Notes: a model not told the origin generated them from the letters alone. Shown: positions 16,901 to 54,097, counted from the first letter of the stretch. The stretch is 64,000 nucleotides of DNA from Blasia pusilla (GCA_050084515.1 CM114271.1:45384001-45448000); one strand, 5' to 3'. Made by a program: numbers and translations.

Positions 16901-19049
16901 GAAGAGATAAGAGGTAATCTACTTGTGTCAAAATGTGATTGTCTAAACCTTGAGAGGAAGCCATGTGGCACAAGATAAGATTAGCCTTATTTCGTACTCT
17001 TGTGGATCCTTGTGAGTTTATAAAGAGGAGGGACCTTCAAGGGTTCATCACCTTCTACTTCACATCTTAATCCTCTCGTGTCATTCTTGAATGTATGGCT
17101 TTAGTATTGTTGGCTCTTCCAATGAGAGTGGATTCCAGTCTTGCGAGAATAACTTGACCTTGGTCAATTCTTGAGAGGTTTCTAGAGTGTGATATATGTG
17201 GAGATGAAAGATTTATCACCTTAGATGATTTTAGTCGTACTAGAAATAGAGGATAGTTTGGCTTGTTATTTTTGCAATGAGAGTGAATTACCCTTCTTGG
17301 GAGAGCAACTCCGCCAAATCCCATTCTAGAGGAGAGTAGAGGATGTTTGTCAAGTAGGGTTAGGGATGGAGCACCATTTGTGCCAAATTTTCCTTTCCTT
17401 AACCTGTACCACGTTAAGATTCTCTTTGTAGATAGGCACTGGTTCACTCGCTATCTAGTTTATTACTTTGGGGACGCGTTCATGAACCAAGTCCTGCAAT
17501 CTCTAACTTCCGTGATTCTTCTTATAGTCACGTACGGAAGGACATGGGATTGCACTTTGTATGTCCTTATATAGCTATCCATGGACGTTAATAGGCCTAC
17601 TTGAGTAAGGTTTAACACAAGTTATGCTATTTTCCTTGTGTACAAACGTAAAGTATTTTTACAGGGATTTCAAGGTTAAGAATTTTCAGGTTCCATGGTC
17701 TGAAGAAGTGATCACCTCGGCACTACCATTCGTAATTCCTATCGTGAGAGAATGAAGAGTTTACATAATAATTCTATAATAAAAAAGGAGAAATTCTTAT
17801 AGAGTTAAACTTGCATCAACCACGTCTGTTGTAGCTAGAAGGTCCGCCCTTATTCGAAGAAAGACTCTCGACACGACAACGTTAGGCGCCAGAGGCGGCC
17901 AACGGTGGACACTAGATCCTTGACGGTTACGATTGACCATTAATGATGACGACGGACCCTTGATGGTGAGGGTTGACCACTGATCGTTGATGGCGGACTG
18001 TTGACGATGGCTGGTTTAGGGTTTGAACAATTTAACCCAAAAAATTCACCTAGAAAGGCACTTTTGCAAGATTGACCATACTTTTTTTCTCACGACTCTA
18101 AATTATGCACCGTCTATTGCACAGCGTGCACAACTTCATGAACTACGACGGCATCAAAAAATATGTTAAATCAAATATTCCAATAAAAATTGATAGGGAT
18201 TGTCGTAAAGCCCAACGTCTCTTTCTCCTTCATAAAAATTGGCAGCGCTTCCACGTTCATTTCTCCCCAAAAAAATGTGAAACGTGTGAGAACACAAATG
18301 AGCAAGGTACATTGTGCTCCCAAGAGCACCGGCATGGAGGAATCCGCCCCCATACTCAATTCCTATAAAAAATTTGGGCTGAGCTTCTGCGTGCCACTCT
18401 CCCATACACAAAATTAGCAAAGCAAAACAGCAAACTCACACGGCTCTTGCTCGGTGAGCACTCCCATGAGCCATGAAGCGGGAAACATGATCCCCAACAT
18501 GCACCAAACATCGAGCAACCAACGAGCTCCCCCATAAAGGTCTCTCACTCACTCATTCTCTCTTTGTAAAATAAGATCCAATCTCTCTCATGTCTCTCTC
18601 AATGTCAAACCAAACCCACTATCCTAATCAAAGGCTTGGGTTACACACACAAGGCAAGCAAGACCATACCTCCGCCGCCTTATGCCAAAAGGTTCAACAA
18701 AGAGAGAATGAGCTCTAAAGCTCTCTCTCCTTGAGGTATACCCCTCCCATCTCCCAAGCTTTCTCCATGGTAACCTATGCTCCCAAGTCACCTTCTTGGC
18801 TCTTGACGTGATGTAGGAGGTGAAGGGCCACTTACCAAAAATATAAATTTGATCATATACTCAAAATGGTACTTACCTATAATAGCAAGTTCCTCAATAT
18901 GACTCCAAATGAACCCAAACGAAGGGGAAACCTGCTCTCTCAGGTTTACCATGTCGTCAATAGGTCATCCTCAACCTCTTGAGTCTGTCCTCCACTACTC
19001 CCGAAGGCGCTCTACTAGATCTCATCAATCTATCCTAAAAGACATGACA
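13915..19049 (-). mobile_element. Ty3/gypsy element copy 1 (family 1): complete 5' repeat A (18565-19049), 5' internal region and gag with zinc knuckle; pol and 3' end deleted
   Basis: 18100-19049 is homologous to 48950-49789 and 43496-44022. 15370-16420 is homologous to 47150-48300. The minus strand at ~14490-14560 reads CDYCQRYSHTRAWC (CCHC knuckle). The terminus is CATGACA at 19049. Confidence 0.8.
16640..17765 (+). mobile_element. Unrelated ~1.1-kb LTR-like segment inserted in gypsy copy 1
   Basis: Ends TGTAAACTC...GAGTTTACA form a perfect 9-bp terminal inverted repeat (TG..CA). There is an internal TATAAA at ~17018. No TSD is visible. Confidence 0.55.
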
Positions 19050-29514: not shown

Positions 29515-29937
29515 TGTCATGTCTTTTAGGATAGTTCAAAGAGATTTAGAAGAGGGCATTGGAGATAGTGTAACATAGCCTCATGAGGTCGAAGATGAAC
29601 TGTTGAGGCCACGGATAACCTAAAAGAGCTTGTTTCCCTTTTGTTTCGGCTTATATGTAGCCATATATAGAAACTTACTATTTCAAGTATGTTCCCTTTT
29701 GGAATATAGTTGACTTTGTACTTTGGGAAGTGGCCATTGACCCCCTACAAGAGGTCAAGAGCCAAGGAGGTGACCTTCAAGCAAAGGTTACCGTGGAGAG
29801 GGAAGGGGTATACCTCCAACAGAGATAGCTCATTCTCTCGTTGTTGAACTTCTTGGAATGAGGCGGAAAAACTATGGTCCTCTTTGCCTTGTGTGTGTAA
29901 CCCAAGTCTCTCATTATGAGAGTGGGTTTGGTTTGAC

Positions 29938-30011
<74 letters not shown>

Positions 30012-30178
30012 GTGCACACCGTGTGAGACCTCGTTGTTGTGAGAGATTTTATTCAAGATATTTTGATACTTCTCGTCTCATTGTCTGGATGCCATGAGTT
30101 AGCATGCATTCATGTGTATTTATGTGTATCTTTGGTGACAACGATGTATGTTGTGTAGCGATGTGTGTACGCACGATA
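29515..30178 (+). mobile_element. Solo A-B terminal unit of gypsy family 1 with 4-bp TSD (AGGT)
   Basis: Reverse complement of 43369-44022. Begins TGTCATG and ends CACGATA. Flanked by AGGT at 29511-29514 and 30179-30182. Confidence 0.85.
29941..30008. repeat. (AG)n microsatellite, ~34 units, inside the solo unit
   Basis: Direct reading. Sister copies carry only a few CT units at this position. Confidence 0.97.
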
Positions 30179-33100
30179 AGGTAGACCATGTGGAAAATTT
30201 GGAAAATAATTGAATCACTATATGATATTCTTACCAACATGAAATATCAATATGCTAAGTATCACTACACTAGTCATTCGTAAGATTCCAATTCATAAAT
30301 ATTTTGAATGACTCACAATGACTTTGTGAGTATTGATTTAACAACTACCAATAAGTAGGAGAGCTTTCTTGCACGTACTAACGATGGCTCTTGGAGTTGG
30401 ATGATCATATTTTATATTTATCAATAACGAAACGAGTTAAGTCATTGAAATTTGACAAAAATATTGTGTACTATGTAAGCGACTACATGAGTTGCCATGT
30501 GTAGCATGTAAGTAACTACCTTAGTTTTGATATGGAGGGAATAATTAGAATACTCATTCCCACGCGTATTTATGAGTCAAAATTAATCGATTGTCAAAGT
30601 TGATTGACTACGAGAGTCATTATTTAATGTTTAATAGAGTAATACTGAATTGGTTACTTTTTCATTGATTTACTTATAGTATATGACTTGGCATGTTGTT
30701 ATTGTACAACTAAAGTAGTTATTAGTTTTAGGAAACTCAAGGTTATTATCCATTCATTTGATGGGTAAGAATGTGGCTAATAGATATAGCCACCTTTGCT
30801 TGTCAAGTTGGATATGCAGCATGAGTCAAACATGTACAAGTTTGTTGTTAACATTGAAAACGATGCTAGATTAGGCCTTACAGTATTAAGCATTGTAACA
30901 AGATAACATCGAATACTACATCATAAGACTATCATTTTCTATAAAATTGAACATAGAAAATAGTTTGTTCACTAACACAAACAAGTACTTGGTTCCATTC
31001 ATTTCCAAAAATACATGGAGAATTAAAAGAACTCGTTGTATACAAACAAATATTAAACAAAGTTCTTTAGTAAAGCCAAATAAGCATCCTTTGGAACCTG
31101 AGAATATTGGTAAAAAAAAATGGCATGATGCTAGAACGCGAGTGGTTGCGCAAAGAAAAGCGAAGGCGAGAATGATCTAAATGGTGGTCAAGATATCCAC
31201 TTTGTAACGATCTAGGTTCTTGACATGGAAGGTCTGTCTGACATGGTCTGCTTCAAATTTCTTCCAACTTTTATGGCCTTGAAGATTTCTCGAGAGCAAT
31301 ACACACCGATCATCCAAGGGCGAGGATGATCCAACCTTGTAAGGGAGAGTGCAAGGCTAAGTAAGGATGAGCATTAACTAGGTCGAGATGGGCGCAGTTG
31401 AGATGAGCTCACAAGGAATAAGTACGCTCTGGAAATGAGCGCTACTAGGAAGTATGAGCGCGAGTGCTTTATTTTTCTTGATTTTTTCCTACCTATTTTT
31501 TTCTACTTCACTCACATTTAAAACATCAATTTGACCTCTTCTCTTGTTTTCTCCCTCTACTTCATCTTTTATATTAATTTTCTTTTTTTAACCCTTATTT
31601 TCCCATTATACTTGGTGTTAGTTTTAAAAATATTGAAATTTTAATATAGAGTATAATAATTCATTTTGGGAAAAGGTCTCCATCTACTCAACTTATTTCA
31701 TTGATTATTTCAATTCATCCCATTGTTTATTTGTAACCTTGTGTGCTAATATCTCTACCACATTAGTCTATATTTATGTCAACAACATGATTAGGAGGAT
31801 GGATAATCTTGCACTTCGTGATATCAACAATTTTCTAATTACATTTTGATATGTTGAAGTAACCAATACGCAATCGTTACAATATTCCAACATTTGGTTA
31901 CATTTCATGTATTATCTTTGTTTTTATGTGCATTATTGCTCTTCCCAATGGGTCGAATTATTTCATATGTAGAATTTCCGCTTTTTATTTTATTTTTACT
32001 TCCTCTTATAGGATTAGTGCGATTATGAAAAATTACTCCAGGCCGAGTGCCCAAAAAAGAGGAGATGAAAGAAATCAACAATCCGTGTGACTCATTCAAT
32101 CGTCTTCTATCCATGGGCCGTATCTTATTACCATGGTAATCTTTAGTATGCATATTCTGAGGTTTTTTATACAACCTTCTTTTAACCAATCTTCAAACTT
32201 CGCATACTTTTTATTCCATAATTCTAACTTCTATTCGTGATTTTTGAAATAGATTGCATGGGGATATAAAAATGAAGATGACATATTTTTGCAAAGACTT
32301 TAGTACTCAAAAAATATAAATCAACGATCTATCCTAGAGAGCATAATAGAAAAAAATCAAGCCTACCTACAAGGAAGAGGTGGTGTTTCTCCTTTATTTA
32401 TTGAGGCCATATGTGATGCTCCATTTACCATCATCAAATATCTATTGAAATCCATGATTCATAATCTTTTAAGATATACTCATTTAATGCATCGAATTGT
32501 TGAGCAAGCCTCTTTATTAGTCATGGATTAAATGTCTCTTTCGAGATTGCTCATTTATTAATTCTGATTTTTGTTGAGAGAGTTATACAAGTCTCTAATC
32601 CGATAATTCAATCTTACACAAATTTGCAACTTTTGGGAGAGAGATATTCAATTATTAAGATTATGAGGAAGTATCGACCATGTCATCTATTGTTATACTA
32701 TTAGCTCTATGTTATAAACATGCCCTTTGTGCTATTCCCTGCATTGGAAGTATGAAAAGTTGGGTACAAGGTTTCATAACTTATCCTTTGATATGTATTG
32801 TGATCTTATTAGTATTCTCTAATTAATCGAAAATAAAATTACCTATGTAGGACATATCGTATAATAGGGTTATCAAATAAAACTTAACGTAGATATTTTC
32901 TTCAATGAAAAAATGGATGACAAGTCTATGATAGTCAAAGGAACAAGATCTAGCATAATGTTCAGATCGATAAGAAGATTTTATGGTATAAATTCAAACA
33001 TCGATATATAGTGAAACTGGCGAATAAGTCATAAATCTCAATGAGTAACATAAGAAATATGGGAATATGAACTTGCAAAGGCAACAAAGTCTTTCCTTAT

Positions 33101-34534: not shown

Positions 34535-37500
34535 TGTTGTGCGCATACACATCGCTACAAAACCCACATCGCTGGTCACATCTACACACCACACAACACC
34601 GATCTTCCCAACCATAAGTCGATCAATCCATAAACCAAACAACTCAATCATATACATCGAGACCCCACACAAAATACATGAGTATGAAAAACGGCTCACG
34701 TGCCGTAAAACTCCACTCATGAATCTACATTGACATATCGAGCCACATCCACCCTCCGTTATGAGGAAATCTGGATGCTAGCACCCTAGCTGCTACACAC
34801 CCACACACACATACACATGCAAGAAAGGTGCTCTTAAGGCTCAACATGAGAAAGATGGCATGAGAAAGCCATCTCCCTCGCTCTTATACCCTTGGGAAGA
34901 GCCTTTTGGCTCTTCCCCCCAAAATAGCCCTCCCAATGGTAACCTACGTGCATAGGTTATCGGGTGACTGTTGACTTGGTCATCGGGTTATCTGACGAAC
35001 TGAAACCAAAATAGAAAAATTTCCATAAACAACGTCCCTAACACAATAGACCTATTTCTAACCTCATCCGACATCTAGGGATGAAGTTACTCTCACGACA
35101 GTCCGCTGGCTCTCTATGCCGTCACCACAATAGATCTCTATCTATCGACTACTAAGATGTGACAATTATCGTGCGTATACACATCACTACATAACCCACA
35201 TAGCTAGTCACATCTACACAACACACAATACCAATCTTCTCAATACATCGGTCGATCAATCCATAAACCAAATAACTCACACATATATATCGAGACTCCA
35301 CAACCGCCCCCTAGTTGGCAGTTGGGTGCTCCTAACTCTAGATAGTAAACATCTATGTATCTGACATGATCTACTATTCTATACATATATAGCACCATCG
35401 ATGCCATCGTCCCCGCAACACTGCCACACTACAGCAATCCGCCGTGTTGATCCGTCCGAAAACACTCTCGTACCCTACGCCAAACGCTACCACATGACGC
35501 ATGTGGTACCCGCATACATGAAATCTCTACCCTAAGAGCACGATTGTCACCCGACTCCATCTGCTCCAAGACATAAGCACGGCTCCACGCTTGCCTCTTA
35601 AGCTCATCTACAATCCATGTAACTCACCGCTCATCTCCAAGAACAATAAAGAAGCTTTGCACCATAGGAAGAGACACCCACCCTGACATGTCTCTCTATG
35701 GGACTATCCGCTACAGAAATATCCTATGCATGTATGCTCCTCTCTCCAAATTATCTGCTCAGCTAACACCGCATGTGAATGCTGCCAACGTGGTCACTGT
35801 ATCCTCGGGTGGCGGACCACCACTACCTCCTGCAAGTTGCACTGGTAGATGGCTCACTCGTCCATCACTTGATCGCCATCCTCGCCGATAAGAAATTTTC
35901 TCCTCTCAAAAATCCATAATGATCCTAAGGGAATACAACACCATACTCCCTACCAACATACAACTCTATCGGTGTCATAATCGCATGAGTGCGCGCGATC
36001 GCACTATCTGTCTCATGCTCTGGCTGGAGTCTAAACACTAACTCATGTCAAGTCATGTAGTGCATGGATGAAACGCCCCCAATAGAGGGTTGTATCTGAA
36101 AGGAACAATGCTTGATGTTTCCTTTCCGTAAACCCAATGCCAAACACGCTGCATTCTCTAACATCAAGGGATGCACTCCCAAATCAAGTAGGATACGTTG
36201 CGGGTGATACACCGTACTTGTGGGACTAACCAAGCAAAACACTCTAGCTCGGATATCCAACAACACCACATGGTGTGATCATGTCTCACTCTATTGTTGG
36301 CCTAGCTTGCATATCTACCAACTTCGCTGCCGCAACATGCCATGACTTTGTGGAAGACGTCCCGAGCACGTGCTCCGAGGGCAAGTCCACCACCTCCTCA
36401 ACTACCTCTGAACGAGAGGCAATCATCTCTCCGCGCTCACACAATGTAGCAACCAGCCAAAACACCTCCGTTGGTCTCACTCCCATCGTCGCCAACTCCA
36501 TGGTGGAAAACAACAAAGTCAAGCTCATCCTAGTGGCCACCTCCAAAAACGTGGTCCACACTAGCTCCACCTGAGTTGGCATAGAACTCGTGTCTCCAAC
36601 TCTTCATGAAGTGGATGCACCTGCCTTACCCATGGGTACTACTGGTCATTAAGGCATCATAAATGGTGTACGCATTGCCTGCAACAACGTGAACGACTGG
36701 GGAACCCTTACCTGGCACCCATCAATCTCCTTATGTGGGTCAATCTCAACCCCATCTCTCGATGGCTCAATTACTCTTGTAGCACCTCGAGTCACCATCA
36801 TAGCAGCTCAACTTGAGCCGCACTACACATAAATCCCATACCAGCAGAATCCTCACAAGTATCGTGGTAAGATGTGGAGGCAAGTGCCACACTAGCTACT
36901 CTCGGCTCCGTGCCTGCCCTTAGCTGCATCATTATCATGGCAGCAATCCTCTGCTCCAACTGATCGATGCGAGTAAGGAGCGCTGCATCAGGTGCACGTC
37001 CTCCATCCCTTGTGACTGGTGATGGAACTCTACCACCACGATCATCCACTACTTGATCTCCACCAACCCTCTTGCAACCAAGTCCTCTACCTACCTCAGG
37101 ACATACCTCTCGGAGAAGATGAAAATACCTATCCCTAGTGTGAACGGATCGATGACAATGATCACACTACAACTATGGTGAGGCCATCCTAGGTGGCTCT
37201 TGAGCAATTAGATGCGCCCTCAGCCCTTTACTATGATGTGGGTAGTCCCTCCACCTATGTGGTCCATCACACGTCCAACAAGCCCACCCTAGTCCTTGCA
37301 AGGTAACATATATCGGTACGGTTGTTGCCTTATTGGCTCACGATATCCGCCCTGCTCTCTAGGCCCATCGGCCCGCTCCGGTGGTACGGGTGCATGGAGG
37401 ACCACCTGTGGCTCTACTCCTACTCGTGGACCCCTTGAATCTCAAAAAAATCGTGTGGTCACAACCTGCTCCCAGATCATGTTGAGCTCTATCCACTCAG

Positions 37501-39985
37501 ACAACTCGATGATCACCTTCAATGTGGGAGCACACTGTGTGAAGCAACATCACATCCTGAACTCTCCTCTACAACTCCTGGTCCAGCACCCCGTACCAAA
37601 ATTGTACTAATTGTGCCTTATTCATCCCATATGTTGCAATGATCAGCCGTTGCATGCGCATGAACGCCTCCTTCAAACTCTCACCCGATCTTCGCTCAAA
37701 ATCCTATAGACTCTTCAGCTTGTCGGTCCGCACGCTTTGGTAGCTCCTCCCCAACTGTCAGAAGAACTCCATTGTAGGACTGAAACTCAGTGGAACTCTA
37801 CCATGAGAGGTTTGTGCCATCTCACCACTCTCATTGCCATCCTCTCCATCTAGTCCCCGAGCTAATGGCGTAGGCCTCTCCCCTCTCACTATCCCATCAT
37901 ACACCTCATGGCCGCTAGTGGACACATACCCTGGACACATACCTTCAAGCATCAATCTCTAATGAGTGTAAAGATAAAAAATCCATGTAGTCATCCATAG
38001 GAGGACCCTCTAAATATTTGAACAGACTCTTCCACGCCATGAAAGGGTTGAACCACGCAGGGGCGCGTATATCCTGGTAGTCGCACCATATGTAAAACTC
38101 CTAGAAAAAGTCATCTACATCTATGGTGCCTACCGCACCCAAGAAACAACTCATGCCCTGATGGCCCATGTCATCCATCTCTCTCAACGTATCATTGTCC
38201 CCGTCCGTGATCTCGTCACCAAACCCCTTGTCTAGTGATGATGATCCAGCCACGGATGAGAGTTGGCGCGGGGTGGTTCCTCACTAGAAACCCCTCAATA
38301 CCTCACACCACTCCATGTCACTCCACTACCACTGCTTGCACTACCCCTTTCTTCTAAACCCTGGAAGAACGTCGTGATGACAACCATGTCTCACCCGCTC
38401 AAGCACTTAGACTTACCAATAGTCTCACACTCCTCACTAGCTCACCTATGCTAATGGTAATCCCGTGACAACATACCCAAACTCACGCACCCTCAACACT
38501 TGGGCTCACCATGAGCCTCCCAAACAAACTCACCTAGACTACCGACACTGTCAGGTCATACACACGAACCCTACTAGGCAATCGCCGTATATTTACAAAC
38601 ATGCTATACATGCATGGAGACTACACTCGTCACCATTGCTACATCCATCTAGCACCAATGACTACCCGACACCCATCACTCTCTATGACATGAGACAAGT
38701 GCGGGAAAAGGGACTCGAATGGGTAACCTCAATATGCCAACCAATCTACTACATGTCAACCCTAACTCCTCCATGTGGTAGAGCAACCTCCGCAACACAA
38801 CCATCTTCTTGCACAACACGTCAATCCTCCATCAAAACCCTCTTACCCACAGTGGATGAAGGACAACTACGGCGACCCCCACGCAACTTGCAACTACGGA
38901 AAAACTCCCGTCGTGGATCCCATCCGCGCTCGCGGTACACCAAGTCCCCAAAAACTCTCTCCCACTACATGACCCAACTCAACCACGTTCAACTCCCTCA
39001 ACCCGATAATGTGAATCAACCACGTCCAACTCCTTGCTCTACCATGTTGACCTGTTCACCAACCACGTCTCCTCAAAGGACCACGTCCGCCCTACCAATC
39101 ACGTCCAACATGCCCTCCAACATCCGGCTTGCCTACCACGTCTGCACTCAATCACGTCTGCCCTAAGGGGTCTAAATGGGGGGAAGTGGAAGTAAATTCG
39201 TGGGGGGGGGGAAGGCCCGCAACCCTATGGGCCTTAATTGTTGGGGGAGGAGGGGGATAGGGGGCGCGATACCCTATGCGCGGCCCCTACCAAACTTCTC
39301 TCTCAACCCACCTTCCACCTCCTTAGCTGTAGCTTCGGCCTGTCCGCATGCCTCCCTATGAAACCGCGACCCTCGTAGCCAGACTCCTACTCTACGCATA
39401 TCCATGTGGCTCAAAGTGACCTAAAACAACTCTACAACCAAGCGGCCGTGACCTAGCTTGGCCGCCCTCACGGCGGCTATGGCGACTTGATCTAACATGC
39501 TTATCTTCCCGCTTGTTCAATATGCGCCGCTCTCTCGACGTTGCTACCTACACGCTACAAACGAGCACTCCTTTTCCATTATCCTTCGTCAACCCGCACT
39601 AGCAAGAAATGAGAAAAATGGACAAGGCTTCTGCTCACAATCTCCCGAATGTAAAAATGATAACAAAATGCCAACCAGCGTCTCCAAGGGCTCCCCAACT
39701 GAGGCAACTCGCTTGCCTTCCTGCAACCAATGAATTCCCTGCCCCCTTGTATCTTTCTCATGTAAAATTTGAGTTGTAAAAATGGCTCATCCGGCCTAAA
39801 CTTCACTCATGAATCTACATTGGCATGTTGAGCCACATCTACCCTCTGCTATGAGGGAATCTGGACGCCAACACCCTAGCTCCTATACACACACACACAT
39901 ACACACACACATGGAAGAAATATGCTCCTTATGCTCAACATGAGAAAGATGTCTTGAGAAAGCCATCTCCCTCACTCTTATACCC
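34535..39985 (-). mobile_element. Ty3/gypsy element copy 2 (family 2): split repeats B 34535-34669, A 34670-35164, B' 35167-35302 and truncated 5' A 39761-39985; gag and protease remnants, most of pol deleted
   Basis: The repeats are directly visible. PPT-like AGGGGGCGG lies on the minus strand at ~35304-35313. Protease-like ILLDLGVHPLML is in ORF 36048-36269. A knuckle remnant CDHCHRSVH is at ~37140-37170. Gag 37940-38230 resembles 15370-15620 and 47150-47450. Confidence 0.85.
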
Positions 39986-40049
39986 ATCTGTGTATAAGAG
40001 TGAAGGAGAATGCTACATCACTTGAGGTACCCTAAGACATTAGGGTACT

Positions 40050-40260
40050 TTAAGTGGTGTACCATTAAGCTTAAGAATACTCATTTATTTCAAGCTCGAA
40101 CTAACATCCAGAAATGCACTCGCTTAATTAGAGAGAAAGTGATTGCAAAAGAAATTGGTCTTGTTTATATAGATATAGATCAACAACTTTTTGATAGATT
40201 TATAAAGATATAGCATAGAAATCAATTTGAGATGTTTAGAAATATTTTTGGTATGAGAGA
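40050..40260 (+). pseudogene. Continuation of the same copia RNase H after the gypsy insertion
   Basis: TIKLKNTHLFQARTN...LIREKVIAKEIGLVYIDIDQQLFDRFIK matches canonical AIxLAKNPVFHARTKHI..FIREKV..GEI...Q.ADIFTK. Confidence 0.8.
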
Positions 40261-40416
40261 TATTGATATGAGCTCGAGGAGGAGTATTGAAGATTGAATT
40301 ACATTCAAACTCATTAGACATAAACTACTATATTTTCTACTTACATGAAGTAGGAAAAACTTAATCTTTGGTTAAGTATTTAAGCATGATTGTCTTAACT
40401 AGGTTTAGTTAATCGT

Positions 40417-43368
40417 TTCATCTTGTCCAACCTTCCCATCTTGAGCTGAAATTTGGCCCACATGGTTTCCAAGGTGTATCTAATCCTCTTGCCAAGTTTC
40501 AAGCAAAATGGAGTTGAGACCACAAGCTCAAAAATCGATAAGTCTTTTTTGGACTTATCGATTACAAACCATCTGACCTTCCAAAGAAATAAGGTTTTCT
40601 CTTTTTTCATCTTGTCCAACTTTCCCATCTTGCGCTGAAATTTGGCCCACGGGATCTCTAAGGTGCATCTAACCCTCTTGCCAAGTTTCAACGAAAATGG
40701 AGCTGAGACAACAAGCTCCAAAATTGGTAAGTTTGTTTGTGACCCACACCATCAATCCTTCTATCAAATTAACCCATAATTTCCATTCTTCATATTGTCA
40801 AACTTTCCCATCTAGAGTTTAAATTTGGCCCACATTGTCCACTAGGTACATGTTCCACTATTGCCAAGTTTCAAGCAAAATGGAGTCGTGAGCAAAACAT
40901 CACAAATTAATAATTCCTTTTTGGACGCGAACCATCAAATCTTGAATGAAAAGAAGGTCTTTTTATTTTTCATCTTCTCCAACTTTCCCATCTTGAGCAA
41001 TATTGGAACGTGCACCTTGGGGACCGTGTGGGCCAAATTTCAGCTCAAGACTAAAAAGTCCACTTTGACTACGTTTCAAGCAAAATGGAATTATGAGCAA
41101 AAGCTCACAAATTAATAACTTATTTTTGGACCCGAATCGACAGACCTTCTATCAAAATATTTTTTTCATTTTTCATCTTGTTCAACTTTCCCATCTTAAG
41201 GTGAAATTTGGACCTGAACCATCAGACCTTGTATCAAATTAAGGTTTTTTCATTTTTCATCTTTGTCCAACTTTCCCATCTTGAGGTGAAATTTGTGACC
41301 CACATAGTCCCCAAAGTGCATGTTCCACTCTTGCCAAGTTTTAAGTAAAACGGAGTTTTGAGCAAAACCTCACCAATTAACAACTCCTTTTTGGACCCGT
41401 ACCATCACATCTTCCATAGAAATAAGATTTTATCATTTTTCATCTTGTCCAAATTTCCCATCTTGAGCTGAAATTTGGCCCACATGGTCCCCAAGGTGCA
41501 TGTTTAATCCCTGCCAAGTTTCAAGAAGAATGGATTTATGAGCAAAACCTCACAAATTAATACCAACTTTTTGGACTCGAACCATCAGACCTTCTATCAA
41601 AATAAGGATTTTTCATTTTTTATCTTTTCAAAATTTTCCATTTTGAGCTAAATTTTGACAAACATGGTCCTTAAGATGCATGTTCCACTCTTGCCAAATT
41701 TCAAGCAAAATGGAGTTCTCACGAAAACCTCGAAAATTAATATTTCCTTTTTGGACCCATACCATCAAACCTTGAATGATAAGAAGGTCTTTTCATTTTT
41801 CATCTTGTCCAACTTTACCATCTTGAGTTTAAATTTCTTCAACATGATCACCGAGATGCATGTTAAATGTTTGCCAAGTTTCAAGCAAAATGGAGTTGTG
41901 CGCACAAGCTCAAGTTTTGGTAAGTCCTTTTTCTAACCCGAATCAACAGACCTTTTATCAAATTAAGGTTTTTTCATTTTTCATGTTGTGAAAATTTCCC
42001 ATTTTGAGCTGAAATTTGGCATACATTGTCCCCAAGGTGCATGTTCAGCTCTTGCCAATTTTCAAGCATAATGGATTTTTTAGCAAACCCTTAAAAATTA
42101 ATAATTATTTTTTGGACCCAAACCATGAGACCCTCTATCAAAATAAGGTTTTTTATTGTCCAACTTTTCCATCTTGAGCTTAAATTTGGCCCATAGGTTA
42201 TCCAAGGTGCATCTAACCCTTTTATCAAGTTTCAAGCAAAATGTTGAACGCAAGCTCAAAAATTGGTAACTTGTTTTTTGACTTTGCCTTCTATCAAAAT
42301 AAGAATGTACTATTTTTCATCTTGTCCAACTTTCCCATCTAGAACTCCAATTTGGCCCATAGTTTTGCAAGGTGCATATAGCATTCTTTCCAAGTTTCAA
42401 GAAAAATGGAGTTGTGGCCAAAACCTCAAAAATTCTTTTGTGGACCTGAACCATAAGACACTTTATCAAAAGAAATTTTTTTTTTTTCATTTTTCATCTT
42501 GTCCAACTTTCTCATCTTGAGCTGAAATTGGGCCCACATTCTCCTTAAGGAACATGTTCCACTCTTTCAAATTTTCAAGTAAAATGGAACTATGACCAAA
42601 ACCTCACAAATTAATTACTCCTTTTTGGACCCGAACCATCAAACCTTCTATCAAAATAAGGATTTATTATTTTTCATCTTGTCCAAATTTTCCATCTTGA
42701 GCTGAAATTTGGCCCACATGGTCTCCAAGGTGCATGTAGCACTATTGCCAAGTTTCAAGAAAAATGGAGTTGGGACCACAAGCTCAAAAATTAATAAGTC
42801 CTTTTTGGACTTATCGATTACGAACCATCTGACCTTCCAAAGAAATAAGGTTATCTCATTTTTCATCTTGTCTAACTTTCCCATCTAGAGCTTAAATAGG
42901 CCCACATGGTCCCCAAGGTACATGTTCCACTCTCGCCAAGTTTCAACCAAAATGGAGTTGTGAGTAAAAGCTCACAAATTAAGAACTGCTTTTTGGAACT
43001 GAAGCATCAAACCTTGAATGAAAGAAGGTCTTTTCATTTTTCATCTTGTCCAACTTTCCCATTTTTAGCTGAAATTTGTCCCACATAGTCCCTAAGGTGC
43101 ATGTTCAACTATTACAAAGTTTCAAGCATAATGGAATTGTGAGAAAAACCTCCAAAATTAATAATTCCTTTTTGGACCCAAACCATGGGACTTTCTATCA
43201 AAATAAAGTTTTACCATTTTTTATCTTGTCCAACTTTCCCCATATTGAGCTGAAATTTTTCCCACATGGTCTCCAAGGTGCATCTAACCCTCTTGCCAAG
43301 TTTAAAGCAAAATAAAGTTGTGAGCACAAGTTCAAAAATTGGTAAGTCTTTTTTTGATTCGAACCATC
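40417..43368. repeat. 180-bp tandem satellite, array 1 (~16 diverged monomers)
   Basis: The unit TTCATCTTGTCCAACTTTCCCATCTTGAGCTGAAATTTGGCCCACATGG...GCCAAGTTTCAAGCAAAATGGAG...GAACCATCAGACCTTCTATCAAAATAAGG recurs every ~180 bp (e.g. 40789, 40969). Confidence 0.97.
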
Positions 43369-46300
43369 TATCGTGCGCATACACATCGCTACATAAGATA
43401 TATCGGTGTCACCGAACATACACACAAACACACACAATCCGATGCTAGCTCATGACATCCAAACAACGAGACGAGAAATACCAAAATATATCCAATTTAA
43501 ATCAATGAAATCTCTCATCACATCTCACACCAAGCTCTCAATGGTGTGCACTCTCTCTAATGTCAAACCAAACCCACTCTCCTAATGAGAGACTAGGGTT
43601 GCACACATAGCCTCCTAATGAGAGGCTAGGGTTACACCATAGCTCCACCGCCTCATGCCAAGAGGTTCAACAATGAGAGAATGAGCTCTCAAACTCTCTC
43701 TCTTGGAGGTATATCCCCTTTTCCTCTCCCAAGTCCTCTCCATGGTAACCTATGCTCGCAGGTCACCTCCTTTGATCTTGACTTGTTGTAGCGGATCAAG
43801 GGTCACTTACCAAAGTGGAAAGTTAACTATATCAAATACAATAAAATACCTAAAATATCAAGTTTCTAAATATGGCTCCAAATAAGCCAAAACGAAGGGA
43901 AAACCTGCTCTCCCAAGTTATCCGTGGCCTCAGTAGGTCATCCTCGACCTCTTGAGGCTGTCCTCCAGTATCTCCAAAGGCGTGCTACTAGATCTTGTCG
44001 ATATTTTCTAAAAGTTGTGACAATTGTCGTGCACATACACATTGCCACACAACATACATCATTGTCATCGAACATACATACAAACATGCATGATTCGATG
44101 CTAACTTATAGCATCCAAAGAACAAGATGAGAAGTACCAAAATATCTCTAATCGTCCCCCTAGTTGGTGGTTAGGTTCCTCTAACTCCATACAACCATCT
44201 ATCCCTACCTACCATGACATACATCTCTCAGACGCTAAGAGCAAAAATGTCGGGTGCTCATGTGGCCCCATCGTTAGTAGTCTTTCTGTCATCCATCTCA
44301 CAGACATGAGTCGGAATCTATCACTACCTACTCTATGTACATTTGGGACACATCCATTATCCCCGAGGAACCCTAGTGAGAGGTGGCGTCAAACATGCCA
44401 TATGCCATCATCTCAAACATCCATCATAGACTAGCATAGTAATTTCACCAATGGCGGAACCACACAACATACATCGCAAGCCTGCAGGAACTACTACTAA
44501 GCTCAGATTGACTGTACCGTCAATGTTAGGAAGATGATATGACGTACAATTACACACTTGGTCCTTCCAAACCATACCATCACGTCCCTCCAATAAGACA
44601 ACACTATATGGCAAAATCCCATGCACTCTCAAGATGGTGTGCCCTATAGTCACATCCAACGTCGTGGGTGTCATTTGCTGCAAGTAGACATAGTCTCCCT
44701 CATGAAACCTCCAGATAGTAGGTTGATAACCACCTTCATGACTAGTCGCATACCTCAATGTATCCCGATGTTGCGCAGTCGCCAAGTTCTCAAACGCCAT
44801 GGGCATCACTCTCCTAAATAACTCAACCCTTCGAGAACATGCTCGCATCCATACATCACGGTCATCAAGGTTCAACACCTCACCAATGGCAACAAGTAAA
44901 TGGGGCTCTCGGCTACAAAGTAGAAAGTACGGTGAGATATACGCTAAAGATGTTTGCCTGCTGAATCTGTATCCCATCGCCAACCATGACAACTGGAGGT
45001 TCCAATCTCTTAGGTGATCTCTCTACAAGCCATACTTGCTCAATCCTCTCTTCACCGTCTACACAACCCTCTCCGCTAGTCCATCCGCCTCAGGATGATC
45101 TCGCAAAGTGGTGCGTTGGTCGATCAACGCCTAATCACACTAGGCTTGAAACTCCCCGCGAAACTCTGTATCATGGTCTGTCAACACCTCAATTAATGCA
45201 CTGTAATGACTTAACACCCCAATCTAGGAAGGCATACGCTACTCCCTCAATCGCTTTGTCGGGAAATGCAACCAACTCTATCCAATTCGAGAAGTGGTCG
45301 ACCATCACCAACACATAACGAATATGGCACTTCGTCAAAGGTAAAGGTCTTGCAAAATCCAAACTCCATCTATAACTTAAACCCATGATAAGAAGTGGAT
45401 ACAACTATGGAGTCAGAGCATTGAACGATGCTCGGACCCTATCACACACCATGCATTGGCAACAAACTGCTGAACATCACTGTGCATACCTCGCCACCAA
45501 TATTGTATCTGGAGCAAGCTGTACGTCCGCTTCACTCCAAAATGACCCGAATCCTCGTGGGCATGATGCACTAGACGTGCTCTCTGTGAAGGATGGGGCA
45601 CTACACGCACTATATCCTCCTCCCAAACGTGCAACACATGTGTCCCCTCCCACCGGAACCGTCTGGCTTGCTATACGATCTGATCCCGCTCTCTAGCAAC
45701 CACTATGCTCGCGACGTTGCCTTTTTGCTGGTACTCCAAGACAACTCCATCGTCGTGAATATCACGGCCACCTGTCGTATCCTCACCCACCTTTGGACCT
45801 AAAGACTCTCCATCAGACCTTGCCATCGAAGTCTCAGCAATCTGGCTCTCCATAGCCAAAAAGCCCAAATAGGCTAACCTGTGCCATCTTGGCACCAACT
45901 CCTCATCACTCTTACCATGCCAACGAGCTTCAATCGCGTCTCATTGACTCAAGCATGAGTTATGACTCAAACCACATGTATCCTAACGAGCATCCTAATT
46001 GAGCATCCTAAGCCTATGCACCATTTGGAAATCATACTCCTACAACAACAGAGCCCACCTCGCAAGCTTCCCTGTAAGCTTGTCGGACTCCATCAACCAC
46101 TTAAGTGGCTGATGATCAGTAATAATGATAAAGGGGTGAGCATGGCTCCAAGCCCCAACATGCTCCAATCGGTAAGCAATTGGAAAGGACGCCCTGTGAT
46201 GGGTCTCCTTACTATGGGCACGGACGTCAATCAGTCCTTGAGCGGCTAAAATGCTCTTTCTTGGTCATCCCCCTAGTGCCACTTCTGATCCACCTTCCTA

Positions 46301-49300
46301 AGTTGGGTGAGCAGCTTCGCAATCGAAGCAAAACCCTTGAGGTACTATCGATAGAAGTTTGCCAATCCCATGAATGCACGAACTCGACTCACATCTGTAG
46401 GATATGGAATGCGTGAAATAGCCTTTATCTTTGTCTGGTATACACCAAGGCCCCTTGGATATATGGTATGACCTTGGTACTCAATCAGGTTGTAGAAGAA
46501 CTTGAATTTTCCTGGATGTAGCTTCGGCCCATATAACTGCAACCGTCGAAACGCTTCCTCTAGATGTCACTCATGCTCCTCAACCGTGACGCTAAATACT
46601 ACGATGTCATCAAGATAACATCTAGCAAAATCCAGACCTGCCAAGATCCTATCTTTGACCCTCTAAAAACTGAACGGGGGCGTTCTTTAACCCAAAAGGT
46701 AAGAACCACCATTGGTACAAATAATCCTTCCCATGAGGATCGATGCCCCAAAATGCCGTCTTCTGCGTATCTTCCAAATTGATAGGCAATTGATGGTACC
46801 TGGCTCAAAGATCTAGCAAATTGAAGACCTTTGCATGCCAAATAACATCAAAGATCTCCTCAGGCGTGAGCAAGGCATGTATACCTATCGGACTTTGTCT
46901 ATCGATTGATAGGTCGGTAATCTCCACACAACCGCCTATCCGTCCAATTGCCATGCACATCCTTCTTGGTGGGCATGATAATGGCAGATGCATACTCTCC
47001 ATGTGACATTTCCACTATTCTGCTCCAACCAAGTCATGGATCCTACTCTAAATCAGAGCCCTCTCAATGTCACTGTACCTGAAGGATCGTCGGAAGATCA
47101 GCGTGTCGCTCGAAAACTCAATGCAGAGTAGAGTTGCCATGCCTCAATCTCTTGGGCATATCTATGGGACAACTCATGGTAGTTGTCCATGTGTGCCCTC
47201 TCTAAATATTGGAATATACCGTTCCATGTTATGAATGGGTTGAACTCTCTAGAGTTCCTAGCCCGCTGTGAGTCACATCAACTCCTAAACTCCGCAATGA
47301 AGTCATGTAACTCTATAGTGCCTATAGCACCCGAGAACCTACGCAATCCTCTATCCCGATTGTCCATCTCCTACGCCCAACTGGTAGGACCATTCAATGT
47401 GTGCAATGAATCACTAACACACTCCTCTACACTCTCCCCCTCATCTGAAGACGACATATAAGGAGGTCAAGGCGGTCCCTCACGTGGAGGTCCTCAAAAA
47501 CCTCGCGCCACTCCGCGTAAACCACTATGGCTACTCTTAAGTCCACCATCTCGCCTCTCAAAGTCTCGGAAGGACGCCATGATGACCCTCGTGCCCCTTT
47601 CACACAATCACTCTCAATCCAGTGAGTAATCACTCAATCATTCAAACTAAACATACGGCACTTAATCTACACTCTCGTACTGAGACGTGTGTTGTGCGCG
47701 GCGTGATGCCAAAAATCGGCTGATCTAACTTCTCATCGACAAACCATACCCTTAACTGTGGATATCTTACACAAGTTTATGTCCCCTAAACCCATACATC
47801 AATGATGCTCTCATCATCCACACAAAACCTAATATCCCCAAATAACTACCCAATACTCGGAAATCCCTAACACGTGCAGGGCAAAATACCAGAATGGATA
47901 ACCTGAACAAATATCGATTCTCCTCTACAACTGCAAACCTTGATCCCAACTCGACCGTGAAGAAAAACTCCTCCAAATAGCACGTCGTACTCTCCTGATA
48001 CTGACAGTGATCAAATCTCCTCGATGTGCATTGCGGGTCCAACAATGCAGTATGGCATTGGCGGCACGGAACGGCTACAACCAGCACGACACTCGGGCAT
48101 GGAATGCGGCACTCAACGGCATACCCTCCTCCAGAAAAAAAAACATAATGTGCTCCCCAAGAATGGTGCGACTCCGCGATCAAGACGGTGCGGTGCGGCT
48201 ACGAGCGGCAGGACGTGGCAATCGGCCTAGCGTTCCGGCTATAGGCAACACGGCACGGTACTCGATCGTCGTCGAGCATTTACCACCTCAAGACATAGCA
48301 AGGCTAGAAGAGAAATGCGGCCCTAACAATCCAAAAAAAGAAACTGTCCAATCAACAAAGGTGACAAATGCCATCAACGACGATCAACGGACGGAGCAAG
48401 GATGGACCAATATCCGGGAAAAACGGTAGAAATAATTTCGATTCAGTTTGCTACCGGCCAAAAAAGGGAGGGATGGTCTGTTTGCGATTGGAATCGAAAA
48501 CTTGAAAATTTGCCGCTCGGTTTTGTAGAGACCGGAAATGTACCGGTTGTCACGAAAAAACTCCCCGGACCCTGGGATGGACTGAATGGACGGTGAAAGT
48601 CAATACTAATTACAATATCTTTCATGTGGATAAATATGGTTCTTTTTTAACCTTATTCAAAAAGTTAAAGTTTTTTTGTTTTTCCCCACTCTACTAACTC
48701 CTTCAACTAAGGGTCAACTCACTAAAATTATTCACATTTGGTTTATACTCCACTAAGCCCCATAAATATTGGATCAACATCCACAAAATAAAATTTTCAT
48801 TCACTTTAACCTCAAGATCATAAGTTTCATTTGTCCTTTCTCCAATAATAAAATATTTTTATTTTTTCTACCTCAACTAAGAAGTTACCAAGAATTTCAA
48901 AAATTGCTCCTTCTTCACGCGGTGGGTATGGTAGCTCCACAAAAATGATCATAACTTCTTACTCACATGTTTAAATTACGCATCATTTCTTCCATAATGT
49001 GCATAGCCTTTGGATCTATGACCGCGTTCATTTTTTTTCCATTCAACATTCCAAACAAAACTAACGGGGAATGTCATGCAACCCTTCAATCTGCACTCTT
49101 ACGAAAAAATCGCCAACAATTCCGCGCTAATTTCTCCCAACAAAGAGTTCAAACCTATAAAATCATAAATCAGAAAGGTACATTATGCTCCCAAGAGCAC
49201 CGGCATGGGGAAATCCTCCCCCATACTCAATTCCTACAAAATTTGGGCAGCGCTTCCGTGCGCCACTCTTCCACACGAAAACTCGGCAAAGAAAACAACA

Positions 49301-49789
49301 AAATCAAACGGCTCTTGCTTCGGTGAGCACTCCCATGAGCTGTTGAATGGGAAACACAGTCTCGACCTGCACCAACAGCGAGTGACCAACGAGCTCCTCC
49401 ATTGAAACTCCCTTACTCTCTCATTCTCTCTTTGTAAATCAATGAAATCTCTCATCACATCTCACACCAAGCTCTCCATTGTGTGCACTCTCTCCCTCTC
49501 TCGTGTCAAACCAAACCCACTCTCCTAATCAGAGGTTTGGGTTATACACACAAGGCAAGGAGGACCATAGTTCCGTCGCCTCATGCCAAGAGGTTCAACA
49601 ATGAGAGAATGAGCTGTCAAGCTCTCTCTCTTGGAGGTATTCCCCCTTTCCTCTTCCAAGCCCTCTCCACGGTAACCTATGCTCGCAGGTCACTTCCTTG
49701 GATCTTGACCTACTGTAGCGGGTCAATGACACTTCCCAAAGTAGAAATTCAACTATACACAAAATGGAAACTTACCCAAACTAGTAAGG
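43369..49789 (-). mobile_element. Ty3/gypsy element copy 3 (family 1) inside the satellite: B 43369-43494, A 43496-44022, B' 44025-44150, pol, gag, truncated 5' A 49434-49789
   Basis: The repeats are directly visible. PPT AGGGGGACGA lies on the minus strand at ~44152-44162. RT, RNaseH, integrase and PHD remnants lie inside in gypsy order. Confidence 0.92.
44335..47080 (-). pseudogene. Gypsy pol: RT - RNase H - integrase (HHCC, rve core) - PHD finger; frameshifted
   Basis: RT reads KKDVHGNWTDRRLCGDYR, TPEEIFD, LLDL, FGLKNAP, CYLDDI, KLHPGK and VRAFMGLANFYR. Integrase reads HAHEDSGHFGVKRT..YWWRGM and WSLDFARPLP..LVMVDHFSNWIE. The C-terminus reads CMLCGS..MLVYDGCLR*WHMACLTPPLTRVPRG*WMCPKC. Confidence 0.92.
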
Positions 49790-51866
49790 TCCACATTTTC
49801 CCCAAGGTGTATGTTGCACTCTTCCAAAGTTTCAAGCAAAATGGAGTTGTGAGCAAAACCGCACAAATTAACAACTCCTTTGGAGATCCGAACGATCAAA
49901 CCTTGATTGAAAAGAAGGTTTTTCCATTCTTCATCTTGTCCAACTTTCTCATCTTGAGCTAAAATTTGGCTTGCACCCTCTCTAAGGTGCATCCAACTCT
50001 CTTGCCAAGTTTCCACGAAAATAGAGTTGGGAGCACAAGCTCAAAAATTAATAATTCGTTTTTGGACCCAAACCAGCAGACCTTCTATCAAAATAAGGTT
50101 TTTTCATTTTTCATCTTGTCCAAATTTTCCATCTTGAGCTGAAATTTGGCCCACAAGGTCTCCAAGGTGCATCTTACCCTCTTGCCAAGTTTCAAGGAAA
50201 GTAGAGTTGGGAGCACAAGCTCAAAAATTAATAATTTCTTTTTGGACCCGAACCATCAGACCTTCTATCAAAATAAGGTTTTTTCCTTTTTTATCTTGTC
50301 CAACTTTATCATCTTGAGTTGAACTTTGGCCCACCAAGTCTCCTAGGTGCATCTAACCCTCTTGCCAAGTTTCAAGCATAATTTATTGGGAGCACAAGCT
50401 CGAAAATTGGTAAGTCCTTTTTTGACCCGAACCATGAGACCTTCTATCAAATTAAGGTTTTTTCATTTTTCATCTTGTCCAAATTTCCCATCTTGAACTA
50501 AAATTTGGAATTTTCCCCAAGATTCGTATTCCACTCTTGTCAAGTTTCAAGAAAAATGGAGTTGTGACCAAAACCTGAAAAATTAGTAATTCCTTTTTGG
50601 ACGCGAACTATCAAACCTTGAATGAAAAGAAGGTCCTTTCATTTTTCATCATGTCCAACTTTCCCATCTTGACCTAAAATTTGGCTCACATGGTACCCAA
50701 GATGCATGTTCAATTTTTGCCGCAAAATGGAGTTGTGAGCAAAACCTTACAAGTTAATAATTCCTTTTTGGACTCGAACCATTAGACCTTCTATTAAAAT
50801 AAGGATTTTTCAATTTTCATTTTGTCCAACTTTCCTATCTTGAGCTGCACTTTTGCCCACATGGTCTCCAATTTGCAAGTAGCTATCTTGCCAAGTTTCA
50901 AGCAAAATGGAGTTGGGACGACAAGCTCAAAAACTGGTAAGTCATTTTTTTACTTGAATCTTCAAACCTTCCCAAGAAAATAAGGTTTTCTCATTTTTCA
51001 TCTTCTCCAACTTTCCCATCTGAGTTGAGTTGAAATTTGGCCCACATTGTCTTCAAGGTGCATGTTCCACTCCTGTGAAGTTTCAAGAAAAATGGGGTTG
51101 TGAGCAAAACTTCACAATTTAATAACTCCTTTTTGGACTGAACCATCAAACCTTCCATAGAAATTAGATTTTTTCATTTTTCATCTTGTCTAATTTTCTC
51201 ATCTTGAGATGAAATTTGGCCCACATAGTCTCCAAGTTGTATTTTCTACTCTGGCCAAGTTTGAAGCAAAATGGAGTTGTGAGAAAAACCTCATAAATTA
51301 ATAACTCATTTTTGACCCGAACCATCAGACCTTCCATAGAAATAAGGTTTTCTCATTTTTCATCTTGTCCAAATTTCCCAATTGAGTTGAAATTTTGCCC
51401 ATATGGTCCCAAAAGTGCATGTTCAACTCTTGCCAAGTTTCAAGCAAAATGGTATTGGGACCACAAGCTCACAAATTTGCAAGTCCTTTTTGGACCCGAA
51501 CCAAGAATCCTTCTATCAAAATAAGGTTTTTTCATTTTTCATCTTGTCCAAAATTTTCATTTTGAGTTTAAATTTGGCTCACATGGTCCTCGAGGTGCAT
51601 GTTACACTTTAGGAAAGTTTCAAGGAAAATGGAGTTGTGAGAAAAACCTAAAAAATTAATAACTCCTTTTTGGACCTGAACCATCAGACCTTCTATAGAA
51701 ATATGGATTTCTCATTTTTCATCTCATCCAAATTTTGTCTATTGAGCTGAAATGAGGCCCACATGGTATCCAAGGTACATCTAGCACTCTTGCCAAGTTT
51801 CAAGCAAAATGGAGTTGGGACCACAAGCTCAAGAATTGGTAAGTCCTTTCTTGACCTGAACCATCA
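49790..51866. repeat. 180-bp tandem satellite, array 2 (~11.5 monomers), same orientation as array 1
   Basis: Same monomer, registered at 49930, 50110, 50290, 50469 and onward. Confidence 0.97.
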
Positions 51867-51990
51867 TGTCACATCTGAGTAGCCGTTAGGTAGGGATCTA
51901 TCGCGGAAACGTCACAGAGATCCAACAGACTATCATGAGTATAACTTCATCTTCAGGTGTGGGATGGGGTTGAGGATAGTTCCGTTGTGT
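51867..51990 (+). mobile_element. Terminal fragment (start of repeat A) of gypsy family 2
   Basis: TGTCACATCTGAGTAGCCGTTAGGTAGGGATCTAT...TAACTTCATC aligns with the reverse complement of 35050-35164. Confidence 0.8.
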
Positions 51991-52774: not shown

Positions 52775-53062
52775 GAGCCCGTCCCCATGGAGTCGCGGCG
52801 GCACTTCCCTCTCGACCGAGGCCGACGGTCCTACCAGTTTCCTGGTAGGTAGGGTCACAAACGGTTTCCGACGCTTGACCATGAAGGAGTTAAGAAAATA
52901 ACGGATACAATACTTTAATTTCCCAAGGATCGCCTCAAATCTCCGTGTCATAAATTTCACGGTGCATAAAGACCAACGACCCATGTATGTTGTGTGAAAT
53001 GATAATCATCGATTTAACATCGGAAGGAGCCCACCACCATGGAATTCTACATGGGGACCTCC
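52775..53062. mobile_element. ~290-bp Tourist-like MITE related to the Harbinger terminus at 8414
   Basis: Imperfect TIRs GAGCCCGTCCCCATG / CATGGGGACCTCCC follow a TTA. The reverse complement of 52915-53062 is collinear with 8414-8575 (e.g. GTGAAATTTA[T/C]GAC). Confidence 0.6.
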
Positions 53063-53319
53063 CGTTGATGGAATCATTTCCCTCTTCTACTCCATTTAAT
53101 GTCACTTCCCAAAATTTAGGGACAAAATTATAAACTTATTACCGTTTTATTTTAATTTGCATACGGGATATGGTATATGCCCTTTGGCCACATAGACAAA
53201 AGAGGTGTCGAAAATGAAAGGATGGGGCCATAAGGAGTGTTCCCACACACGACGAAGCTCCCTATTGGCTGCCACGGCGATTGCAGTGACGTGTACGTGG
53301 TTTACATCCCTTGGCTGCG

Positions 53320-53385
53320 ATGGAAGGATGCATGGATGGACGGTCGTTGCTTGCATCACGATGGGGATGGATGGATGGATGGATA
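53320..53385. repeat. (GATG)n-rich simple repeat in the upstream region of the TEX2-like gene
   Basis: GGATGCATGGATGGA...GGGGATGGATGGATGGATGGAT. Confidence 0.7.
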
Positions 53386-54097
53386 CCTTGAACCATCCCG
53401 CTTCGCGTTTCGAACCCAAGCTCGGGGGCCCCACCGGCCCGAACCTCCAGCAAACCCTTGGACGCGGTATTGCGCCCTTTGGCCATTTTGGGCTCTGCCT
53501 TCCTCTCGTCCTCCGCTTCCGATTCGTGAACTTTCACGCCAGCGCACTCGCAGAGGCGTCTGGTCAATCCCGCCCCTCTAGAAGTCATCGGCTGCGTGGT
53601 CTCCCGGAAGAACGCCGTGCGGATCGCTGCAGTTCCCGAATGGTATATTGTCAAAGTTGTGCGATGTGAAAGACCGATCCAAGACGCGCATCATGTCGGT
53701 GGATGACGCGAGACTTTGAGAGCGGAATGCCGGAGAATTGGCAAAATTTGTGTCATCGGGATCGGGGTCGGGCTGTCGTAGGGAATGGTTCCGGAGTCGA
53801 TTCTCTAGATTGTGTAGCGGTGTATTTGATTTCGAGTGCGCGTTGATTCGCCTGGGAAATTGAGGGCAGGGGCAGGGTGCAATTGAGTTCCTGACCGTTA
53901 TGGGGATTGGCTGACTTTCGTTTCGTAAGAGGGTTTCCCTCCAGGGCGGAGAGCTTCTTCACGAAGAATTACCAGTTTACGATTTATGTTCCTGTTCACC
54001 GATCCCGCCGTGCAGGGTAATAACTCTGGGCGGGAGATGGTGTGGACAGTCGCAAACGACACTGTACTTTGGCAGGAAAGAGATTCACAGAATTAAC

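Follow-up and report, generated by a model that had tools for sequence, protein, structure and literature searches.

Split direct repeats in the order A1-internal region-B1-A2-B2 are a feature of the retroelements Ngaro and PAT. The closest described system to the one considered here, so far as the available part of its source describes it, is KnitGypsy-Dnmt3 of Klebsormidium nitens, in which a DIRS-type repeat structure is combined with gypsy domains (de Mendoza et al. 2018, legend to Fig. 4c; PMC5890265). The same text calls the order A-coding region-B-A-B typical of DIRS (PMC5890265). Self-priming, a rare way to start reverse transcription, is established for Tf1/sushi elements and is predicted, in the portion of that survey available to us, for the plant Tcn1 and TAR clades (PMC6317226). 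The present analysis concerns 64,000 nucleotides of Blasia pusilla DNA (GCA_050084515.1 CM114271.1:45384001-45448000), referred to below as the window. It contains four related elements, delimited by self-BLAST and by reading of their ends, all of them decayed and belonging to a Ty3/gypsy-type retroelement lineage with the split-repeat layout. It is probable, at odds that we would put near 0.7, that this lineage starts minus-strand DNA synthesis in the manner of Tf1, by self-priming with the 5' end of its own RNA.

Complementarity at the inner edge of repeat A

In the family 2 element of the window (34535-39985, minus strand), a TATA motif, TATAAGA at 39982-39976, lies inside repeat A1. The 13-nt segment at 39938..39950, 32 nt past this motif, is predicted to begin the transcript and is proposed to act as self-primer; a copy of this arm is also present in A2 at 34856-34844. 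The arm is the perfect complement (13/13) of a predicted primer-binding site at 39751..39763, which begins at the first base past A1. In family 1, also on the minus strand, the arm of copy 1 (18712-18697) pairs with its predicted primer-binding site (18567-18552) at 16/16 positions, and that of copy 2 (49613-49598) pairs with its own site (49420..49435) at 15/16; in family 1 a TATA-like motif begins at 18740, and the copy 1 arm follows 28 nt later. A preliminary description of the window had reported these duplexes, with upstream arms 28-32 nt past a TATA-like motif, downstream arms at the inner edge of repeat A, and no TGG-type site beside them. It proves exact in coordinates and letters. The downstream arm starts at the first base beyond the A1/A2 similarity (in family 2, A1 extends to 39764 and the site runs on from 39763), and no TGG occurs within ~30 nt past A1 in any of the three window copies.

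As a test of the duplexes, the 40 nt that follow repeat A were searched for their longest perfect complement in the preceding 220 nt, and its length was compared with that found in dinucleotide shuffles. Matches as long as the observed one arose in 0/2000 shuffles for family 2, in 0/2000 for family 1 copy 1, and in 3/2000 for copy 2, where the perfect run is 11. Relatives were obtained by scanning metagenomes with 22 aligned intact relatives as query; of 597 candidate stretches 487 were confirmed, and the best 80 were kept as loci. These loci contain 20 upstream A sites, and removal of L022, a near-duplicate of L021, leaves 19 non-redundant A1 ends. In twelve of the 19, a duplex of 12-22 bp that contains no more than a single mismatch has its downstream arm starting at the A1 end (L005, L006, L010, L011, L012, L013, L030, L033, L035, L064, L044 and L066). 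A partial duplex is seen in L019 (10/12 plus one G-U pair), and a further one, 16/16, in L001, which represents a third metagenome family. For L033, L035 and L066, a perfect match at least as long as the observed one arose in 0/300 or 0/500 shuffles; for L005, L010, L011, L013, L044 and L064 the figure was 0-6/300. The distance from TATA motif to arm is 26-34 nt in well-preserved copies, and the inner end of the duplex falls within 0-3 nt of the A end that is fixed independently by the A2/B2 join.

The pairing is retained while its letters change. A MAFFT alignment of 16 leaders introduced gaps inside the arms; pairs were instead counted by script in 16 elements anchored at the inner end of the helix. 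Six different arm sequences are distributed across both window families and three further metagenome families. An arm and its own site form 12-13 of 13 Watson-Crick pairs in five of the six representatives, and 10 in the decayed L019, against 4-8 of 13 when arm and site are taken from different families. Compensatory double changes are found within family M2, where L044 and L066 differ at two adjacent pairs and L019 and L066 at two more. The covariation analysis proposed in the preliminary description has thus been carried across families, and its statement that pairing is kept despite sequence change is borne out. Because the complementarity is position-specific, is kept across families, and shows compensatory changes, as Tf1-type self-priming predicts, it argues for self-priming in this lineage.

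Both the minimum-energy and the centroid folds of the predicted leader close with the arm-site helix, as do the folds of L066 and L035 (z-scores of -2.7 and -5.0). Folds and covariation show pairing, not priming. The helix might instead be conserved as an RNA structure closing the 5' leader, with a part in, for instance, packaging, dimerization, translation control or positioning of strand transfer, while some other molecule acts as primer, and the unusual repeat layout, which suggests a replication path unlike that of Tf1, would be in keeping with this. However, the helix always begins at the first base past the A end, where the 3' end of a primer must sit, and no other candidate primer site is conserved across families. 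In each cycle of Tf1 the primer serves as template for the site; one family shows double changes of adjacent pairs with no intermediates, which fits a site renewed in this way. A purely structural helix therefore seems improbable, and self-priming is the preferred explanation of the pairing.

A background scan of ~900 kb of loci sought perfect inverted repeats of at least 12 nt whose arms are separated by 90-260 nt and preceded, at 18-40 nt, by a TATA motif. It returned 12 matches; six are expected sites, and every match of at least 15 nt is an expected site. It might be supposed from the other six, and from the weak fold of the family 2 leader, that the inverted repeats are chance matches in decayed DNA and have no function. 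The position-specific shuffles in the window and in L033, L035 and L066 speak against this, as does the recurrence of pairing, with compensatory changes, at one position in six sequence families, and the idea may be considered already refuted.

Several observations nevertheless weigh against self-priming. The preliminary description had held that complementarity should persist in other family members; it does so in the 12 A1 ends listed above and in L001, but six of the 19 ends have no convincing duplex (L021, L024, L036, L060, L065 and L073). Where these were inspected, a deletion is present in an arm or in the site, which would point to decay or deletion. For family 2 the fold as a whole has a z-score of only -1.8, with 7/200 shuffles folding equally well. 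The predicted transcript start is placed by TATA spacing, in copies that are all decayed (A1/A2 identity 81-92%), and the family 1 TATA-like motif is weak and is mutated in A1 of copy 2. The six background matches away from expected sites are AT-rich 12-13-mers, and a 13-mer by itself is therefore not unique. The duplex of the window lineage measures 13-22 bp, compared with 11 nt in Tf1. A plain Tf1-like path would yield B-A...B-A, not the observed A1...B1-A2-B2, so that at least one replication step must differ from Tf1. Finally, no tRNA gene was found in the window or in 50 loci, and the case against a tRNA match is the lack of an adjacent TGG and of a shared motif.

This last point bears on the possibility that the primer is a separate host RNA, either a tRNA fragment or other small RNA whose 3' end equals the arm, or a tRNA that pairs further downstream. 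Family M2 has a conserved TGG-containing stretch ~20 nt past the site, and half-tRNA primers exist in plant copia clades, according to the available text of PMC6317226. A shared host primer would, however, keep one site, whereas six families have six different sites, each fitting only its own arm. The site begins with A in all 16 usable elements, not with the TGG that would pair with a CCA end, and the post-A1 leaders of different families share no motif. A host RNA is accordingly a very unlikely primer, and self-priming remains the better account of sites that follow their own arms.

Two other features of the leaders may be recorded. In family M1 a hairpin lies ~20 nt past the primer site (L013 ~4722-4750, and at the same place in L011, L033, L035 and L064); it has a stem of ~9 bp, with some stem changes between copies, and a conserved 8-nt loop. 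In family M2 a direct repeat of ~12 nt, which contains TGG, follows both the arm and the primer site (L066 1870-1890 and 2035-2050; also L044 and L024).

Repeat layout and element ends

The layout of repeats in the related loci was obtained from whole-locus self-BLAST and from cross-locus libraries of A and B. The order A1-internal-B1-A2-B2 is found in two window elements. In the related loci, B1-A2-B2 follows pol directly in 33 of the 53 that are assessable (the other 27 of the 80 are not), and all four repeats are contained in one contig in 8 loci; A1 lies 4.2-6.4 kb upstream of pol. The split-repeat layout noted earlier is thus both real and general. In this lineage A begins with TG and B ends with CA, and the B1/A2 junction is near-palindromic. 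Perfect 4-bp target duplications, scored by eye at the exact ends, flank 9 of 16 complete related elements and probably a tenth, as well as a solo unit in the window.

Two further details of the layout are informative. Of 31 loci, 23 have a G-run within 0-4 nt of the start of B, and 27 have one within 11 nt; in the remaining four the BLAST edge lies inside a microsatellite. A G-run also precedes B1 of family 1. The A2/B2 join, in the window and in related loci, consists of the end of A fused to the start of B. Because a G-run precedes B1, and because A2/B2 joins an A end to a B start, the genomic copy can be read as a circularly permuted long terminal repeat (LTR) element whose LTR is B+A. The predicted primer-binding sites of the window are themselves purine-rich and were considered as polypurine tracts, a role ruled out by the sites of families M1-M3, which are not purine-rich, and by the conserved G-run before B1.

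With both primer sites placeable to the base, the odd layout becomes readable as a permuted LTR element, and a replication path can be proposed. Transcription would begin ~30 nt past the TATA-like motif inside repeat A, and the first 13-22 nt of the RNA would fold back onto the complementary site directly after A1. A cut in the RNA would free a 3'-OH, from which the arm could prime copying of the A end, as in Tf1. Minus-strand DNA would then begin at the A end and plus-strand DNA at the G-run just before B1, two primer sites that would give the cDNA the repeat unit B+A. Circular permutation of B-A...B-A, with opening at a B/A junction to give integrase-type ends, would account for the genomic A1...B1-A2-B2.

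How the permuted form might be regenerated is a matter for tentative proposal. The account that we favour, though we put it below even odds, is that the DDE integrase acts on a circularly permuted cDNA: the ends of B-A...B-A would be joined (A end to B start, just as in every A2/B2 join), and within the repeat unit one palindromic B/A junction would be opened. Cleavage of palindromic LTR-LTR junctions is within the powers of retroviral integrases, as the accessible portions of two reports indicate (PMC1180852, PMC1905944). Since an upstream A site is followed by B in 0/20 related loci, a random choice between the two circle junctions is excluded, and the cut would need to be directed.

The precision of the A-end/B-start junction in A2/B2, with B starting 0-4 nt from the G-run in most loci, is unexplained by the standard pathway and raises the question of whether the complementarity acts in DNA rather than RNA. 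A hairpin or strand-transfer guide in strong-stop DNA might help to make this join, and plus-strand strong-stop DNA would hold both arms. Fold-back priming in DNA would, however, give inverted rather than direct copies, and none of these inverted copies is seen; nor does any specific model of this kind reproduce the layout. We regard a role in DNA as distinctly unlikely, and retain RNA self-priming as the working explanation of the duplex.

A second arrangement is also present. In 20 of the 53 assessable loci the element is A-internal-B only, a single B being followed by at least 700 nt without A2 (L005, L006, L009, L012, L017, L019, L024, L025, L028, L043, L044, L052, L054, L055, L057, L065, L069, L073, L076 and L077). 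Target duplications of 4 bp are still found in five or six of the eight complete ones. This form could be a product of recombination between B1 and B2, a direct product of integration, or in part an artefact or collapse of assembly. In the third metagenome family, L001:8560-9040 reads pol followed by G-run, B, A, primer site and leader, with no B2; the order resembles that of two elements in tandem, or of a circle that has been linearized in assembly.

The polymerase and the elements of the window

The affiliation of the lineage is evident from its pol, in which reverse transcriptase (RT), RNase H and DDE integrase occur in the order of Ty3/gypsy (Metaviridae) elements, as it is from the TG..CA ends and short target duplications. 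A protein search gave 93 matches. Among the best 74 (P0003-P0076), nearly all have RT, RNase H, integrase and a PHD finger in ~1030-1100 residues, and some have a cytosine methylase domain in addition; two named relatives are from Klebsormidium nitens (P0042, E 1.3e-79) and Marchantia polymorpha. Among proteins of solved structure the best relative is Ty3 Gag-Pol (1e-105); for the integrase part, PFV integrase gives a match at 7e-23. At the C-terminus of the integrase, the window copy and nearly all of the 74 closest relatives have a PHD finger (PF00628) in the place of a chromodomain. A tyrosine-recombinase element, suggested by the repeat layout, is ruled out by the integrase domains and by the target duplications, which insertion by a recombinase is not expected to make. 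No tyrosine recombinase family appears among the Pfam matches of the window pol or its relatives, where a DDE integrase is found instead. Neither the window copy nor its closest relatives have the cytosine methylase domain (PF00145), which is present in some more distant ones. Many such distant relatives (~1500-2400 residues; P0010, P0024, P0025, P0028, P0030 and others) carry this cytosine-5 DNA methylase inside pol, as described for Klebsormidium, and a few are without a PHD finger. A scan of viral contigs gave 30 pattern matches, none of them a relative.

The window pol belongs to family 1 copy 2 (minus strand) and is decayed, with stops and frameshifts. It occupies 44336..47122, the only placement given by tblastn with an intact relative, and is 46-55% identical to P0004. 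With X written at the stops, Pfam recognizes RVT_1, RT_RNaseH, the Integrase_H2C2 zinc-binding domain and the C-terminal PHD finger; the DDE core of the integrase is visible by eye. Upstream lies repeat A1 (49436..49790), which contains the arm and is 5'-truncated at the start of a 180-bp satellite. The 3' block (43369..44165) comprises a G-run at 44165-44156, B1 at ~44154-44025, A2 from 44022 to ~43498, and B2 at ~43497-43369. Arrays of the ~180-bp satellite at 40400-43368 and 49788-51900 flank this copy, and the upstream one starts at the place expected of the first ~230 nt of A1. Either the copy sits within the satellite, or the satellite has overwritten the 5' end of the element.

Family 1 copy 1 retains a full A1 at 19049-18568 (minus strand), with a TG start and the arm inside it; the whole feature, including the primer site, spans 18552..19049. 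This copy is 3'-truncated near 15300. A solo A-B unit of family 1 lies on the plus strand at 29515-30178, with a 4-bp direct repeat at 29511-29514 and 30179-30182. A long GA microsatellite is expanded within it at 29960-30050, between the arm region and the A end.

All features of the family 2 element are on the minus strand. Its A1 (39764..39985) is 5'-truncated and keeps the last ~220 nt of A; self-BLAST aligns 39770-39985 with 34679-34891 at 84%. The truncation point is just 3 nt before the TATA motif, and the AT-rich stretch upstream of it (39986-40400) is unrelated to the first ~270 nt of A2. The internal region (35317..39750) has no Pfam match in six frames and no tblastn match to the pol proteins P0004 and P0022; tblastx against family 1 gives a match at 37627-39025 only, in the gag region. 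A G-run at 35305..35316, a polypurine-tract-like sequence and predicted plus-strand primer site, lies directly before B1 (35167..35304; self-BLAST 35171-35302 against 34539-34669, 86%). The full-length A2 (34671..35164) has its TG start two bases past the end of B1, across a palindromic junction, and B2 (34535..34670) forms the right end of the element, its join with A2 again fusing the A end to the start of B. Because it lacks pol and resembles family 1 only in the gag region, family 2 is non-autonomous. It is also a high-copy family: 2494 contigs of DNA run X1 were placed on the element (two DNA runs, one sample).

Host-gene-like open frames at ~1-8000 and 53000-61000 flank the repeat-bearing part of the window. 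Long serine- and acidic-rich frames at 1437-3416 and 4324-6378 (minus strand) belong to no Pfam family, and 56016-56837 (plus strand) matches the PH domain associated with SMP domains (PF23065, 5.7e-13).

Relation to known retroelements

The sequences suggest what would be new here, a self-priming signature in a gypsy lineage with a PHD finger and DIRS-like split repeats; self-priming itself is already known. The lineage spans streptophyte algae, bryophytes and many metagenome sequences. With both primer sites in place, the old question of how split direct repeats are regenerated becomes a concrete, testable prediction. Were the permuted-cDNA reading true, an integrase-bearing retroelement would have to pass through a circle-junction or concatemer intermediate, and the origin of split direct repeats would have its first account at sequence level, with a bearing on the replication of DIRS, Ngaro and PAT elements. 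There is a practical consequence as well, in that LTR finders that depend on a pair of identical LTRs together with a tRNA site will probably overlook such elements or misplace their boundaries, even though family 2 is abundant in its host. No publication on priming in this lineage was found in a search that took in main texts and not the supplements, among them additional files 1 and 5 of PMC6317226, which hold per-element primer sites, and those of PMC5890265.

TOC1 of Chlamydomonas has an unusual arrangement of terminal repeats. REM1 of the same genus is cited, in the part of the source available, as a PHD-finger-encoding retrotransposon (PMC6673714). The likeness of both to the window lineage is one of description only. 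Ngaro, PAT and some DIRS-order elements share the A1-internal-B1-A2-B2 layout, but encode a tyrosine recombinase, in contrast to the DDE integrase, TG..CA ends and 4-bp target duplications of the window lineage.

The preliminary description had compared the elements with Tf1/sushi-type chromoviruses. This is apt with respect to the site past the 5' repeat that is complementary to the element's own transcript start (here a predicted start), as in Tf1 and Tf2 of fission yeast, in Tf1/sushi elements generally, and, by prediction, in the plant Tcn1 clade of mosses and club-mosses. The gypsy order of RT, RNase H and integrase is likewise common to Tf1/sushi and the window lineage, and a tRNA-type site, which Tf1/sushi elements do not have, is apparently lacking in the latter as well, to judge by the missing TGG next to A1. 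The comparison does not extend to membership, for the window elements are not chromoviruses. A PHD finger stands at the integrase C-terminus where Tf1/sushi chromoviruses have a chromodomain, and split repeats A1...B1-A2-B2 replace their two identical LTRs. Similarity to chromodomain-bearing gypsy proteins is also low, with E ~1e-8 as against 1e-176 to 1e-48 within the lineage.

KnitGypsy-Dnmt3 thus remains the nearest counterpart. A literature search found no other papers that use its name, and the available text of PMC5890265, supplements aside, has nothing on priming, the G-run, a palindromic B/A junction or target duplications. A methylase domain lies inside the pol of KnitGypsy-Dnmt3, whereas the window copy and its closest relatives have none. 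As far as that text goes, the two systems share gypsy domains and DIRS-like repeats, and the K. nitens protein P0042 is related to the pol of the window.

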